Of a stretch of 64,000 nt of DNA, positions 4,082 to 27,767 are shown in pieces. The DNA is from an uncultured Methanosarcinaceae archaeon. Its GTDB lineage: Archaea > Halobacteriota > Methanosarcinia > Methanosarcinales > Methanosarcinaceae. Both the position numbers and the translations under genes were made by a program. The notes below the pieces were generated by a model, which saw only the letters and a program-made list of their open reading frames with translations, was not told the origin of the DNA and did no database searches. How positions within the stretch are numbered: the stretch's first letter is position 1; each line of letters starts with the position of its first letter. Location of the stretch: positions 128,001-192,000 of the forward strand of contig CAWHXP010000013.1 in NCBI GenBank assembly GCA_963833425.1. Reading direction: 5' to 3'.

Positions 4082-4399
4082 ATTAAACAAAAGAAAATTT
4101 TGACTTAAAAATATAATCTACAAATCTATCGGTATTCTAAATAGGAAAATTCATTTCGAGCTAGATTCTCATGGTTAAGTAATAATTCTTTAATTTTACC
4201 ACATAGCAGTTTTTTTACTTTTTATTATTACAGTGATTTAAATAAAAAATATGTATTGATCTCAAATTCAGATAAAATGCCGTATAATTTCGGATCAAAG
4301 TGAAAACATGAGGAGTTTTTATCACAAAATCTATGTAAATATCCATATTATATAGTCGCTATTTTATCAAATGATATAAGGGGATTTATAACGTGCACA

Positions 4400-8419: not shown

Positions 8420-9400
8420 AGTTCCTACTTACGTCTTTTTCTCTTTTCTTTCTTTATTGATGCAATTAGTGACTGCTGATAAAATTGTATTAATGCATGA
8501 TGAAACTATTAACGCAAATATATAAATATCAATTACTTTTTTATTTTCTCTCTTTTTAGTATGAAAATTTATTCATTTTCTTAGTTTCAGCCTAAATCTG
8601 AGACAATTTTGTACATGAATTTGGAGGGGAAATTAGATTTTGTTGGAATTATTGAATAATGAAAAGATAAAATGTTGCTTCCACATCAAATAAGGATTCT
8701 ATTGAGAAATTCTGTTAACGATCTCTGGTCATATTTGTCGCCATTTTTATCTGTTATATTTCGATTTTATCGCGATTCAGTTCTAAAATTCACTGATTTT
8801 TAATTTACTTTCATCACTAAATGTTGGAGTTGAAGCCAGATCAACCCCATTAAATTACAAGTTTCTTTAAATGAGCTTTGAGTCCCTTAAACTCAATAGA
8901 CGAGCACCTTCAACAATTCTTCTGATATGTCTGAGAATAAATCGAGTTCCGTAAAAACATGTTTTTGAATATTGACTTACCTTTTCGGGGATTATTGGTA
9001 AAGAAGAAATTTTAAATTTTTTATATTTATCATAAAGTTCTTTTGTGTCTTGTTTTATATTCTAACGCAATTGTATTATTTCTGTTCCTAAAGACATGAT
9101 CTTTTTTTATCATGAAAATTTAGTTCTGTATCAACTAACTAGGATGAAGTTATCATATTTACTGATGCAGAAGTTTTCATATAAAAACGGTGCATTTAAA
9201 GATTGCATATTAAATATGACTGACTTACCAAAAAAACATCTATTCAAGATATTATGAATATAATAGGACAGTAAACAAAAAATAAAAGTGTATTGGATAA
9301 AATGTAGAGAAAATTATGAATCCTGCCTTAGTTGAATAGTCATGGAAATTATTATTTCAGATATTTCTACAGAACCTAAATTCTGAAATTGTTTCTTTAT

Positions 9401-10509: not shown

Positions 10510-10798
10510 CTTACAACACCTATTTCAGTGATTGAATTGTATATTCTTCAATATTTATAGTTTGTTGGCAGTGCACAAAAGTTCTGTAAATTCCAAAGGA
10601 TCTTGTATCTATTTTTCTCCAAAACAAAAACAGTATTGTATTGTGTTAATTATACACAGATTTTATATCAAAAACTGTGCATCACTAAAAACAAGAAATT
10701 ATGTTATTTGTGGTAAATTTAAAGGGATTCTACAGAGCTGAAATATATTATTTTAATGAAAAAAAGCCAAGATGAAAAAATTATACAGGATATCTCGG

Positions 10799-11356
10799 TT
10801 ATTCGATCAGTACAAGGCAAAAGATGTTCATCATATCGGATACATCCGTCAATACTTCGATAGGATAGCCGTTATTCTTCACCGTGCTGTAAACGTCTAT
10901 ACCGCAACTTTCCATCGATGGTCTGGCAATCTTTGGATTCCTGCAATCCTTCAGTGTGCATTCAGGGCAAAGCTGACAGTGACCACCGCTTAGTGCAAAA
11001 GCCTTATAGTACCCAGCAAGGAAGATATCTCTCTCAAGCGTGTTGATGACCTTTGTGCTGTCCCTTGTGATGATCTTTATCCTATTTAGCAGGTCTTCCG
11101 TCGCTTTGTCGATATTTGGAGAAAAATGTACTAAAAGCGCGTATTCATAGCAATCTACCAGTTCCCTAGTCTCTTGATGTGTAGGTGAATTAGGCGGACA
11201 GCAAAGACTTTTGTTATACTCCGGACATCCATACCTGCACTTCCATCTGGTCCACGCCGCTGTGACTATACTATCTGTCTTAATAATCTTAGCATCGTGG
11301 GCGCCCAGCTTGACAGCCATCTCAACGAATTTTTGGTATTTTTCCAGATTACTCAC
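10799..11356 (-). CDS. DUF2284 cysteine-rich metal-binding protein
   Basis: KCRYGCPEYNKSLCCPP, GHCQLCPEC, RPSMESCGIDV motifs. Confidence 0.85.
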   Translation of the reverse strand: MSNLEKYQKFVEMAVKLGAHDAKIIKTDSIVTAAWTRWKCRYGCPEYNKSLCCPPNSPTHQETRELVDCYEYALLVHFSPNIDKATEDLLNRIKIITRDSTKVINTLERDIFLAGYYKAFALSGGHCQLCPECTLKDCRNPKIARPSMESCGIDVYSTVKNNGYPIEVLTDVSDMMNIFCLVLIE

Positions 11357-11458
11357 TCCTGAAAATCAGTTCTTTTTGTAAGAGTTATAATTCTTAATTT
11401 TTTAAAAAATTTATTATCAAATATTGAAATGGGAGTAATATCACTGAGCTAAAGACTC

Positions 11459-11905
11459 AAAAAAGAAATATAGCAATAGAGATTACCTTAAGGAATATCA
11501 TTATTGCCCTGGAAAATTAGGTGACCAACCCTTTTAAATTATACATGGAGAATACATCTATCAACATGAAATTAACAATAATAATAAATTGTTTGTGTAG
11601 TTAGTGAGATAATCAATCCGATGCGTTTAAGCTTCTTTTTCCTTAACTGTTTAACTCATTTTGTTAACAAACTGAGAATCCCTATTTTTTCATTGGGAAG
11701 AAAAAGATATAGAATCAACCACACTTTACAGAACTTTTGGTACAATGCCAAATTTATATAATTATTATTTCTTATTTTTCGATTCAAGATGATCTTTTAA
11801 GCTAATTAGTTCCAGATGTTATATGTGTCCCACAAGCTCCAGGAGTCATAAAGCAGTAACCTTTTCTTATTTCGAACGGAACTAGAAAATTTCGAGATTT
11901 TAAGA
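11459..11905 (-). ncRNA. Dispersed repeat copy 1: putative sRNA gene plus conserved upstream region
   Basis: Aligns with 13049..13515 and 27185..27374; on minus strand: TATA, conserved initiator motif, GUCACCU linker, hairpin GGCAAUA/UAUUGCU, U-tract. Confidence 0.55.
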
Positions 11906-12137
11906 TAAACATTGTGCATAAGATTATGCTATTTAAAAAATATTGCTTTTAATTGTAGATCGATAAGAATTTCAATAAACCGATTTTTTTAATGAATAAT
12001 TTATATATTATTCATAGCATATAACAAACTTATGGGTTTATAGTAATCTGCTATATAATCTATTAAATAACTCATGGGCATAACTAAGAATCTATAGATT
12101 TTAAAATATGGAAAATTGAATAAATGGAGTGATCTAA

Positions 12138-12668
12138 TTGAATAAACAACATTTACCTTATTTCGCTACAATTCTTATCGTACCGCTAATGTTCTCACAG
12201 ATTGTGATAGCAGCAGAAAGTAACAATCAAGATAATTCTCTTGAATACCAGAATGTAACTGCCAATGAAGCTTATAAAATGGTTACAAGCACCGCTGTGG
12301 TTTCAAGCGATGAAGTATTTATTCTGGATGTTCGTACTCCTGCAGAATATAATTATACACATATTGAAGGAGCAAATTTGATACCATTGAGAAACGTGCC
12401 TTTACATGATCCTGTTAATTTATCCGATGAAGGACTGTTGGCGTGGCATATCAAAAATAATAAAGATTTGCCAAAAAACAAAGATGCAAAAATAATTGTT
12501 TACTGCTTTAGTGGAAAAAGAAGTTCTGTTGCAAGTCAAATGTTGGTACAGTCAGGTTACAAAAGAGTCTATAATATGCAAAGCGGTATCAAAGAATGGG
12601 TAAATGCAAGGTATCCAATTGTAATTGACCCTATATTTTGGACAGTTAATTATCCGAAGGTAGTGTAA
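12138..12668 (+). CDS. Secreted rhodanese-domain protein
   Basis: Signal peptide; ILDVRTPAEY...HIEGA...IIVYCFSGKRS...GIKEW. Confidence 0.9.
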   Translation: MNKQHLPYFATILIVPLMFSQIVIAAESNNQDNSLEYQNVTANEAYKMVTSTAVVSSDEVFILDVRTPAEYNYTHIEGANLIPLRNVPLHDPVNLSDEGLLAWHIKNNKDLPKNKDAKIIVYCFSGKRSSVASQMLVQSGYKRVYNMQSGIKEWVNARYPIVIDPIFWTVNYPKVV

Positions 12669-12799
12669 AAAAAAGTATTGATAGTTGCTTAAGCTATGAT
12701 TTCCAGGATAGATTATTGCAGCCCATTTAATTAATTTGTTGAGCTGATCCCAAAACAAATTGGGCATTGTACTCAAAGTCCTGTAATTCTTATTGACTC

Positions 12800-12869
12800 T
12801 AGGATCTTTTGACTTTTATTTATTACTTATAGATTTACATGCTTATTCTGGAGTTTTTGCAACGGAACC
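12800..12869 (+). mobile_element. Isolated IS6 right-end remnant
   Basis: TTACTTATAGATTTACAT...GTTTTTGCAACGGAACC matches the end of IS6 40591..41445. Confidence 0.7.
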
Positions 12870-13048
12870 ACTCCTTTTTTGTAGTGAAAGAAGGGTAGAT
12901 GAAATAAACAAAAATTTAATTTGTCGTATATGTGCAGGAACCCCAACCACAAACTTCCTGCGCATATATCTATAACGGTTTATTCCACTATCAAATACGA
13001 CCAAATATATTATATAATTGATAGAATAAATTATTCTGAATAATAGTT

Positions 13049-13515
13049 CAAAAAAGAAATAGGGCAATACTAATTACCTTAAAGAATCTCGTTATTGCCC
13101 TGGAAATTAGGTGACAAACACTTTTAAATTCTGTACTGGGATTGTAGTTATCAACATGAAATTAACAACAATAGGATATTATTTTAATAGTTAGTGAGAT
13201 GACCAACCCGATGCTTTCAAGCTTATTTTTTCCTAACTGTTTAACTCTTTGTGCTAATAGACTGAGCAATTTCTGTTTTAAATTGGGAAAAAAATACAGG
13301 ATCAACTACACTTTACAGAACTTTCGGCATGCTGCCGGATCTATATAATTATTCCTTCCCTTCTATTTCTATTTACAAATGTTATTTTGGTTAATTAGTT
13401 CCAGATGTTCCATGAGCTCCAGATGTTCTACGGGTACCATGAGCTCCATGAGTAATATATCAGGAATGTTTTCTTATTACTGATGGAATTTAGGAAATTC
13501 ATAGATTTTATCACA
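13049..13515 (-). ncRNA. Dispersed repeat copy 2: putative sRNA gene plus conserved upstream region
   Basis: Homologous to copies 1 and 3; perfect terminal stem GGGCAAUA/UAUUGCCC followed by UAUUUCUUUUUU. Confidence 0.55.
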
Positions 13516-13577
13516 AAAACTGGAACTAAAAAAGGAGTGCCAAGCCTGCCTTTGGTGAAAGAATAACCCAGTGAGCT

Positions 13578-14196: not shown

Positions 14197-14480
14197 TGAA
14201 TGCTAATGAAATTAGAGCGCTGAAAGTACTCTCAGCACCTAATTTTTGGGATCAAGATTTATTCGAAATACTGATGAAAAAGTTTGATCCGGGATTTCCA
14301 ACTGGTGCCTTTTCAGAATTAATTAAATCTTCCTTTATCAAAGTAGAATCGGATGGGAGATATTCTATCCATCAATTGATGAGAAAAAGCCTTCAGGAAG
14401 ATCAAGATCTAGCCGACAGAAAAAAGATCCATGAATTTCTACGTGAGTACTACAGTTACAAACTAATAGATATTGATATG
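14197..14480 (+). pseudogene. Internal fragment of a large ATPase/TPR-type protein
   Basis: ALKVLSAPNFWDQDLFEILM...YSIHQLMRKSLQE winged-helix-like segment bounded by IS6 sequences. Confidence 0.5.
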
Positions 14481-14971
14481 ATAAGCTGGATTCTTATCAA
14501 CGGTTATTACTCTTGGAATTTGATTATGATTAGAACTTAAAGCTTTCTTAAAGAATCTCTTCGCTGCTTTTCTATTTCGTTTTGAACTTAACATGAAATC
14601 AATTGTATCTCCATTTGAGTCAACTGCTCGGTAAAAATATTTCCATTTACCTTTTACTTTGATATAGGTTTCATCAACTCTCCACGAATCATTTGTTGGT
14701 CTTAAATGTTTTCTTATCTTCTTTTCTATTTCAGGGGAATATCGATGTACCCATCTCATGATTGTTGTATGGTAGACTTTTACTCCCCTTTCTGCCATCA
14801 TTTCCTTTAAATTTCTATAACTTAATGCATATTTTAAGTACCATCTTACATTCAATAGGATAATTTCCCCTTCATAATGCTTCCATTTAAAGGAATTAGA
14901 TAGCATGTTACTATCTCTGGTTTTCTTTTTATTCTATTGTATCAGTAGAAAGGATTTTTTGCAACAGAACC
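14481..14971 (-). mobile_element. 3'-truncated IS6-family element
   Basis: TIR at 14956-14971; ORF nearly identical to the first ~142 aa of 23888..24592, ending at VDKNPAY. Confidence 0.9.
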
Positions 14972-23802: not shown

Positions 23803-24656
23803 GATTCCGTTGCAAAAACTTCAAAAAAATATGTAAATCTATAAGTAATTAATAAAAATCAAAATATTCAAGGAAAATGTACTAATATTATAAAGCTATA
23901 CCAAATAATTGATTAATGTATTTGACTTCATTAAGAACAGAGTAATTTAGATCGATTACTTGTCCTTTTTTGATCATATTTATAGCTTCAATCCCTTTTA
24001 AAGTCTTATTAGCAGATCGAAAAGACTGAAGCTCTAACATTGGATTAACGATTCGCTTTATAGATCTGTGATCTTGTTCTATAATGTTATTCAAATACTT
24101 GATTTGTCGAATGCCTACGTTTTTAGGTAGTATTTTATCAATTTTTAGTTTATCTATAGCAGATGGATAAGCTGGATTCTTATCAACGGTTATTACTCTT
24201 GGAATTTGATTATGATTAAAACTTAAAGCTTTCTTAAAGAATCTCTTCGCTGCTTTTCTATTTCGTTTTGAACTTAACATGAAATCAATTGTATCTCCAT
24301 TTGAGTCAACTGCTCGGTAAAAATATTTCCATTTACCTTTTACTTTGATATAGGTTTCATCAACTCTCCACGAATTATTTGTTGGTCTTAAATGTTTTCT
24401 TATCTTCTTTTCTATTTCAGGGGAATATTGATGTACCCATCTCATGATTGTTGTATGGTAGACTTTTACTCCCCTTTCTGCCATCATTTCCTTTAAATTT
24501 CTATAACTTAATGCATATTTTAAGTACCATCTTACATTCAATAGGATAATTTCCCCTTCATAATGCTTCCATTTAAAGGAATTAGATAGCATGTTACTAT
24601 CTTTGGTTTTCTTTTTATTCTATTGTATCAGTAGAAAGGATTTTTTCAACGGAACC
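23803..24656 (-). mobile_element. IS6-family element, complete
   Basis: TIRs GATTCCGTTGCAAAAA / TTTTTCAACGGAACC around a 234 aa DDE transposase. Confidence 0.93.
23888..24592 (-). CDS. IS6 family transposase
   Basis: WRVDETYIKVKGKW, TVDKNPAY, NNIIEQDHR. Confidence 0.93.
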   Translation of the reverse strand: MLSNSFKWKHYEGEIILLNVRWYLKYALSYRNLKEMMAERGVKVYHTTIMRWVHQYSPEIEKKIRKHLRPTNNSWRVDETYIKVKGKWKYFYRAVDSNGDTIDFMLSSKRNRKAAKRFFKKALSFNHNQIPRVITVDKNPAYPSAIDKLKIDKILPKNVGIRQIKYLNNIIEQDHRSIKRIVNPMLELQSFRSANKTLKGIEAINMIKKGQVIDLNYSVLNEVKYINQLFGIAL

Positions 24657-27184: not shown

Positions 27185-27374
27185 CAAAAAGAAATAGAGC
27201 AATATCGATTACCTTAAGGAATATCATTATTGCCCAGGAAATTAGAAGACAAAACCCTTCAAATTATCATGGATATTTAATCTATCGACATGAAGTTAAC
27301 ATCAATAAAATATTGTTTGTGTAGCTAGTGAGACGATCAACTAGATGCTTTAAAGCTGATTTTTCCCTAACTGT
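27185..27374 (-). ncRNA. Dispersed repeat copy 3: putative sRNA (3' ~190 nt)
   Basis: Homologous to 11459.. and 13049..; terminal stem GGGCAAUA/UAUUGCUC plus U-tract. Confidence 0.5.
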
Positions 27375-27767
27375 TGTCTCATTTTACAGGGTTTGCGACG
27401 TTGACCCTTTGCTTTTTTCCACTATATCGGTATTAAAAGTAGTATAACATAATGTATTTGTTGTATTTATGCAATTAAGTTGATACTACATGTTTTCTTA
27501 TTGTATCTACATAGATAATACATATTTTGCACAGTATTTATTGACTTATATTTAGTTAAATAAGACTTGTACAAATCTGTATACTATATAATTTTTTATA
27601 GCTTTTAATACATTATTCTATAAGGCCTGGAAATACTAATATTCCAGTCATAATTTGCAGAAAATATTTCAAAAAGGGAAAATATGTAATTAACTAAAAA
27701 TATGTTTAGATTGAATCGACGACTATAAACTTGACAGAATTATTAAATCAATTTATGGATGAGAGGT

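Follow-up and report, generated by a model that had tools for sequence, protein, structure and literature searches.

The closest described counterparts in layout of the element considered here are sRNA162 and sRNA171 of Methanosarcina mazei, which are intergenic RNAs of ~190 nt with stem-loops split by a single-stranded linker; sRNA162 occurs in one or two copies next to an ArsR gene and has a long SL2 as well as a variable linker of 39 nt for pairing with a single target (PMC3510493). A precedent of a different kind is RNA-257(1-4) of Sulfolobus solfataricus, a set of paralogous intergenic copies that derive from the distal part of a gene in a mobile element; they have been shown to be expressed, each from a promoter of its own, and to target a single 3' UTR (PMC3674436). 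Among mobile systems, in integron cassettes and CALINs, including those of archaea, a repeated recombination-like site sets off small modules arranged in arrays, and breakpoints fall at this site (bioRxiv 10.1101/2022.02.06.479319); the passages of that preprint on archaeal CALINs do not mention Methanosarcina. Lastly, elements of the IS256 family typically generate 8-bp target duplications (PMC7780238).

The locus described here shares features with each of these, and is distinct from all of them. Unlike sRNA162 and sRNA171, with which it also shares its genus, it exists in dozens of dispersed copies with no common promoter. Compared with RNA-257, its copies are far more numerous, carry varied 5' modules, and are known here from DNA sequence. 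The site delimiting its modules is a symmetric 12-7-12 palindrome, which from its geometry we take to be of the lox/dif type rather than an integron attC hairpin, and the cargo lies in both orientations with the module itself largely non-coding. It includes a genuine IS256-type left end, but no paired ends with a target duplication surround it, as would be expected of a bona fide non-autonomous IS256 derivative. Literature searches on MITEs, IS256 derivatives, integrative elements, and integrons of Methanosarcina, which most subscription papers lay outside, yielded no description of this repeat. It is a real composite repeat with a constrained terminator-like hairpin, previously undescribed within the literature searched.

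The window, i.e. the whole 64,000-nt stretch of DNA under analysis, had been described in an earlier note as holding three homologous minus-strand copies of a non-coding RNA family. These copies and their motifs are located where they had been reported, at 11459-11905, 13049-13515, and 27185-27374, and homology between them is clear, with blastn E values from 1e-38 to 1e-79, far beyond chance. All three are real, but a three-copy family they are not, as the repeat is genome-wide with 24 covariance model matches in the source genome. Copy 2 illustrates the composite organization. On the minus strand, it is opened by a 31-bp lox/dif-like palindrome forming a cassette boundary (13497-13527; PWM score 20.0), followed by module U (13351-13496), which is a separate ~200-bp repeat with a 9-bp tandem array and has a candidate TATA-like motif at its end (13342-13350). 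Next come an IS256-family left end (13273-13336; the terminal inverted repeat plus ~40 nt), previously taken for an initiator, and a decayed remnant (13223-13279) of a coiled-coil/zinc-finger gene from small mobile elements, which corresponds to the 3' end of that gene and terminates at the homologous stop codon. The remainder is a conserved core, R, of ~180 nt (13049-13229; matched by model R2 at 13033-13232, E 2e-32), which contains a hairpin around UUCAU that is constrained on the minus strand (13150-13166), the linker GUCACCUAA (13107-13115), an AGGUGA complement of no special conservation, the two arms of the terminal stem (13093-13100 and 13062-13069), and a U tract (13051-13060). The terminal hairpin and U tract together (13051-13100) form a terminator-like 3' end. 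On the plus strand, an antisense ORF of 12 codons with a weak coding signal in the clade lies at 13156-13194, and an inverted IS256-type end without a target-site duplication faces the copy at 12763-12792.

Copy 1 has the same arrangement on the minus strand. A degenerate 31-bp palindrome (11889-11919; score 14.8), which is the joint of two cassettes, opens its module U (11764-11888; nhmmer match 11762-11939), followed by the TATA-like motif (11755-11763), the IS256-family left end (11681-11749; 81.4% identity over 70 nt, E 3e-12), and a stretch in which the gene-end remnant is followed by core R, including its two hairpins and the U tract (11460-11689). Within this last segment are the UUCAU hairpin (11560-11576), the linker GUCACCUAA (11517-11525), the terminal stem arms (11502-11509 and 11471-11478), and the U tract (11460-11469). 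Copy 3 (27185-27380, minus strand) is core R alone, joined upstream to a different repeat, and no module U, TATA-like motif, IS256 end, or nearby palindrome was found with it; its UUCAU hairpin (27284-27300), linker GUCUUCUAA (27242-27250), terminal stem arms (27228-27235 and 27197-27204), and U tract (27186-27195) are all in place.

The earlier note likened this family to sRNA162, and a likeness in layout is all that could be found. We located the 191-nt sRNA162 with two published primers in genome G013 (locus L309), and its local alignment with copy 2 scored 78 versus 73 +/- 6 in shuffles, i.e. no detectable homology. A profile of eight primer-matched sRNA162 stretches found nothing in the source genome, and the repeat models R1 and R2 likewise had no match in G013, which carries sRNA162. 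The s162-NB probe (PMC3510493, table S2) matches L306 at 1500-1520 rather than the locus bounded by the other sRNA162 primers; since the L306 locus lacks those primers, it was left out of the homology comparison. The genomic setting is different as well, as the sRNA162-type position, between an ArsR regulator and an MM2442-like gene and in one to two copies, does not apply; instead, the copies within the window neighbor DUF2284 and rhodanese genes, and 69 different downstream flanks occur among the 111 copies of the set defined below. In Rfam, no family reached its gathering score in the window, and only chance-level E values were obtained for the copies and six divergent loci.

In its distribution, the repeat belongs to peat-type Methanosarcina. 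Five sister genomes yielded at least 40, at least 29, at least 28, at least 15, and at least 9 matches (42 scored candidates), and the same covariance model identified divergent matches, 1-5 each, in eight further genomes and none in 45 of 58 congeners. A broader model returned the same 14 genomes, and in an order-wide sample of 151 genomes only 2 matched, both within the genus. The core was absent from the plasmid and viral collections searched; a single pattern match to it came from an unrelated phage, which the model did not match. The statistics given here for copies refer to 111 distinct near-full-length copies obtained from the 145 matches of the six-genome clade, and such copy counts are phylogenetically non-independent. 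These copies are ~88% identical to their consensus and ~80% identical pairwise, with a near star-like divergence. Two groups, of 13 and 11 copies, each have a downstream flank in common, and the inspected loci in these groups hold a convergent gene. In the group of 13, L018 1840-2208 and 12 related loci contain a small TIR_2/nucleoside deoxyribosyltransferase-like gene (below the Pfam cut-off), convergent to the hairpin. At the DUF2284 locus, two sister genomes (L075 and L077, compared with window 11459-11637) carry a shorter, different repeat variant joined at an A-rich microhomology. Short variants of this type arise via deletion between A-rich stretches, and across genomes the variants at this locus are 76-78% identical inside the repeat versus 95-96% in the flank. 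The presence of different variants at one locus points to ectopic recombination as an additional contributor.

Neither the whole 282-nt strand (z -0.77) nor the cores (z -0.09 to -0.68) fold better than shuffles, and the terminal hairpin alone stands out (z -1.2 to -2.9). Among the 111 copies, pair-breaking transitions in the terminal stem amount to 20/884 versus 633/8712 in the background, and pair-keeping transitions to 83/884 versus 697/7945. Expressed as observed/expected on the minus strand, the terminal stem has values of 0.39 for breaking and 0.90 for keeping changes, and the UUCAU hairpin 0.58 and 1.08, whereas the plus strand has no such pattern (1.02 for pair-breaking changes in the UUCAU hairpin). 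The internal and terminal hairpins that had been proposed are consequently under strand-specific constraint, and within the clade the G-U asymmetry of the terminal stem is strong. The related claim that stem changes between copies mostly keep pairing requires some qualification, because the 3' arm of copy 1 has one G-A mismatch in addition to one G-U pair and not every change preserves pairing. Structure-preserving covariation is likewise split: compensatory changes in the terminal stem among divergent homologs (alignment A2) reached a level attained in 0/500 shuffles, although relatedness may inflate this result, whereas a 47-sequence alignment dominated by the clade did not exceed shuffles (102/500). 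Two further comparisons count against ongoing selection, namely that 13 flank-sharing sister pairs differ at 15/207 stem sites versus 163/1698 in the background and that conservation of the core does not in general exceed that of the shared flank. Many copies now drift. Judging from the strand-specific constraint, the hairpin most likely acts in cis on the minus strand, as a terminator or RNA 3'-end signal. Since U tracts serve as a termination signal in archaea with no requirement for a hairpin (PMC8716108), termination itself is something we can only infer, and it is plausible that the hairpin marks a predicted RNA 3' end of the terminator-like kind. Were it a plain terminator, there would be no explanation for the ~130 nt preceding the hairpin, which are still alignable among copies with unrelated flanks (mean column identity 69%).

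According to the earlier note, the linker hexamer UCACCU would mask ribosome-binding sites. AGGTGA is indeed the most enriched 5'-region complement of any core hexamer, with a 4.7-fold enrichment before long ORFs, but it precedes only 22 of 1354 long ORFs in the source genome. The hexamer is exact in 53/111 copies, conservation of the linker is 0.858 versus 0.864 for the core as a whole, and divergent homologs carry other letters at this position, all of which speak against a masking seed. The linker thereby differs from the anti-RBS seeds described for sRNA41 and sRNA154 (PMC5867862), in that it has no special conservation. The proposed self-contained gene led by a TATA box does not hold up either, as a TATA-like motif lies upstream of only 28/111 copies, the core is joined to at least four different 5' partners, and no common conserved promoter was found upstream of the copies. 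Regarding transcription, 20 RNA runs contained only 10-16% of the words sampled from the stretch. RNA contigs from four runs (four studies) cover the copies, but they also cover neighboring repeats and give no strand, ends, or level; in run X1, the highest local figure among these unstranded contigs is at the hairpin. Altogether, the three copies are not relatives of sRNA162, and an RBS-masking sRNA family is probably not the correct reading of them. We also considered whether the repeat could be the fixed 3' UTR of a secreted-leader gene family with ~100 members and rejected this, because the 9/25 matches that lie within 2 kb of a member (8% expected) have no fixed geometry relative to it. 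As a separate observation, the ~100 small ORFs concerned share a signal-peptide leader, have hypervariable mature parts rich in Gly/His/Trp/Cys, and are enriched near U and R repeats.

The 5' half of the repeat has a different origin from that previously supposed. The motif following the TATA, formerly read as a conserved initiator, is found 139 times in the genome but never in shuffles. A pattern scan identified it as the left terminus of a 1268-bp element that is intact and has 8-bp target duplications and a Mutator-family transposase. From its sequence, this element is a member of the IS256 family, because its transposase is of the Mutator family and 8-bp duplications are typical of that family. 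The consensus of the repeat family matches this left end at 85.7% over 70 nt, and window 13288-13336 matches the intact element at 77.6% by blastn. Over the next ~55 nt, the family consensus is identical at 37/55 nt to the gene end at L117 (shuffle maximum 29) and at 33/55 nt to a second outgroup gene end (shuffle maximum 30). In divergent genomes, this gene end forms the final codons of a coiled-coil protein located immediately ahead of the core, and it is often a C-terminal extension of a small zinc-finger protein in uncharacterized gene clusters, three of which lie near a small tyrosine recombinase. Hence, what had been viewed as the 5' part of an sRNA aligns with a decayed gene end, an outcome that the earlier note had itself named as refuting its interpretation. 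Nine of the 15 divergent copies examined are located in or beside a zinc-finger gene cluster, while the core is found beside only 2/30 zinc-finger loci, so the core is a passenger and not a fixed part of those elements. The zinc-finger protein was not found in plasmid, phage, and viral collections. A C4 zinc-finger cluster of small genes of no assigned function (L115, L116, L118, L120, L138-L167) was observed in 24/58 congeners, sometimes near a tyrosine recombinase of ~190 aa, and is absent from the six-genome clade. Module U plus the 5' part was also rejected as a living gene, as no codon-phase signal is left in the clade and 140/165 indels are not multiples of three; the one copy that is open across this region has just 4 near-identical database relatives.

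The suspicion that the element spreads as a module proved well founded, as the 150 bp upstream of the TATA are a separate module, U, with ~70 copies in the source genome, and the copy 1 cassette is duplicated exactly from one boundary site to the other. Apart from one weak match, module U was found in the six-genome clade alone. At L174 (~1500-1570), in a mobile-gene region of genome G066, there is a 9-bp tandem array resembling the one in module U, suggesting that U may be of mobile origin as well. The boundary site is the 31-bp palindrome (ATGCAYAG-N15-CTRTGCAT), in which two 12-bp arms enclose a 7-bp spacer and which has ~200 sites in the source genome versus 0-4 in shuffles. It begins 39/55 full U copies, and is present upstream of the core in 42/111 copies (2.4% by chance), downstream in 18/111 (1.4% by chance), and on both sides in only 5/111 within the ranges scored. 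To the left of the upstream palindrome, identity between copies is random (0.31); likewise, ten copies having the palindrome at about +278 are 0.73 identical left of the site and 0.32 right of it. Genome-wide, 83/197 gaps between palindromes are under 2 kb. In the window, palindromes at 9165-9195, 10652-10682, 11889-11919, and 13497-13527 are spaced 1.2-1.6 kb apart and delimit modules with a metallo-beta-lactamase-fold remnant, DUF2284, and rhodanese; others occur at 4308 and 23479.

Copies 1 and 2 each sit in a cassette between such sites. The copy 1 cassette (10652-11919), closed by a palindrome scoring 37.7 at 10652-10682, has as cargo a minus-strand DUF2284 gene (10799-11356; Pfam PF10050), which is duplicated together with copy 1 on contig C10, where the duplication breaks inside the palindromes at 11889 and 10652. 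The cargo of the copy 2 cassette (11889-13527) is a plus-strand rhodanese-domain gene (12138-12668; Pfam PF00581). Alignments with sister genomes also break inside the 10652 palindrome, and long alignments of sister loci end inside 13497-13527. In total, 16/102 alignment ends are inside the four nearby palindromes versus 2.7% expected, though these ends are not independent and many others fall elsewhere in U and R. Modules bounded by a repeated site with breakpoints at that site were accordingly found for the copy 1 and copy 2 cassettes and for ten downstream joints, but not for copy 3, which is far from any palindrome; only 11/25 matches in the source genome are within 500 nt of one. The exact palindrome pattern is present in 22/59 genomes of the genus, including 12/14 of those holding the core, with the caveat that kin are not independent. 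Its link to a small Phage_integrase-family protein is weak and inconsistent across loci, as on a Methanosarcina barkeri plasmid a strong palindrome precedes the small integrase by 208 nt and at L118 the integrase is preceded by a weak one, whereas none was found near the source genome's C6 copy of the small integrase or in 11 loci of the viral collection.

Other repeated sites were encountered in the same genome. A further near-identical palindrome family, whose 12-bp arms are separated by a 6-bp spacer, has 162 sites (e.g. C2:60576), including 7597, 34483, 49833, and 57842 in the window, and 0/25 repeat matches are within 300 nt of one. Ends of the IS6 type are found at window 12869, 14048, 14196, 14971, 23803, 24656, 40591, and 41445, with 249 motif matches genome-wide; two of these ends are located beside IS240-type transposases (14463-14906 and 23888-24592).

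Based upon these features, we favor with moderate confidence the interpretation that the repeat is a composite of mobile DNA carried in part by a putative integron-like cassette system, with additional contributions from IS256 ends and ectopic recombination. Homology shows the ~180-nt core to be the ancestral trailer, hairpin and U tract included, behind the stop codon of a small coiled-coil/zinc-finger gene in uncharacterized, partly integrase-bearing mobile elements of Methanosarcina. In the ancestor of the six-genome clade, an IS256 left end would then have joined the last ~18 codons of this gene at a shared A-rich stretch, and module U would have joined in front of the resulting unit. The joint between the IS256 and gene ends is evident from homology, and we infer the order of the events. 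Cassettes have been duplicated and swapped with breakpoints inside the palindrome, as seen for the copy 1 cassette and the ten downstream joints, presumably through site-specific recombination by a putative tyrosine recombinase.

Transposition and RNA function each offer a different account of the same data. One alternative, which we regard as unlikely, is that the repeat spread chiefly as an IS256-derived MITE or by one-ended transposition, the core having been captured and carried along. The IS256 left end does occupy a fixed position ~105 nt upstream of the core in 42/111 copies (0.2% by chance), about half of which have no module U directly in front, the 139 end-like sites coexist in the source genome with transposase matches that are all broken, and an inverted end lies 574 bp from the IS256 end of copy 2. 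Yet such an inverted end is present within 600 nt downstream in only 7/111 copies, and no target-site duplication was found at 22 inverted end pairs of <12 kb in the source genome or at four core-containing inverted pairs in the copy set; lacking 8-bp duplications around its inverted ends, the repeat is not a proper MITE. A trans-acting multicopy sRNA family, in which some copies would be transcribed from the TATA of U or from a promoter at the 5' edge of the core and pair with RBSs or, in the manner of RNA-257, with mRNAs bearing the repeat in antisense orientation, we consider improbable. Constraint of both hairpins on one strand only, the sharp 5' edge of the core in divergent copies, a linker hexamer that is the best SD complement in the core, the RNA-library coverage, the two flank-sharing groups with their convergent genes, and the RNA-257 precedent (PMC3674436) would all suit such a family. 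It is more difficult to reconcile with a linker that is conserved no better than the core and changed in divergent homologs, with the lack of a common upstream promoter or of matches in most congeners, and with the stem differences of the sister pairs and a core generally no better preserved than its shared flank.

Functionless debris is a quite improbable explanation, by which segmental duplication and ectopic recombination or gene conversion would have multiplied the repeat in an eroded genome, with the palindrome being a protein-binding site that marks repeat edges. The star-like divergence, flat divergence profile, and frameshifting indels fit this scenario, as do the discordant variants at the DUF2284 locus and the many alignment ends elsewhere in U and R; it leaves the strand-specific hairpin constraint unaccounted for, and the breakpoints inside the 31-bp site count against homologous recombination because so short a site would presumably not support it efficiently. 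A very improbable option is a pair resembling type I toxin-antitoxin or spRNA/asRNA systems, in which the plus strand would encode the 12-codon peptide and the minus-strand RNA would be its antisense regulator. Pairs of spRNA and asRNA exist in M. mazei (bioRxiv 10.1101/2025.10.28.685009), and the ORF is intact in 67/111 copies, with 21 stop-creating changes versus 43 expected and a non-synonymous/synonymous ratio of 0.54; in 268 overlapping control windows, the 5th percentile of this ratio is higher, at 0.60. On the other hand, the ORF is not kept in divergent homologs, its overlap with the hairpins can mimic a coding signal, the peptide is very short and only mildly hydrophobic, and ~40 nt separate the AGGUGA motif from the start codon.

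Returning to the cassette interpretation, a whole unit of palindrome, U, TATA, core, tail, and palindrome (~600 bp) was seen in L202, L204, and L007. It is conceivable, albeit speculative, that this unit serves an archaeal integron-like system as a regulatory cassette lacking a gene of its own and combining promoter, structured RNA, and terminator in portable form. A tyrosine recombinase would then move it among gene cassettes to switch, insulate, or antisense-silence their cargo. If the gene-less cassette were indeed regulatory, it would constitute a mobile expression switch of a kind that we did not find in the literature searched. More generally, transposon ends and gene trailers can assemble into a lookalike of an sRNA gene, which calls for caution with ncRNA predictions in eroded methanogen genomes, and the exact site-to-site breakpoints make the putative cassette-shuffling system of Methanosarcina directly testable.
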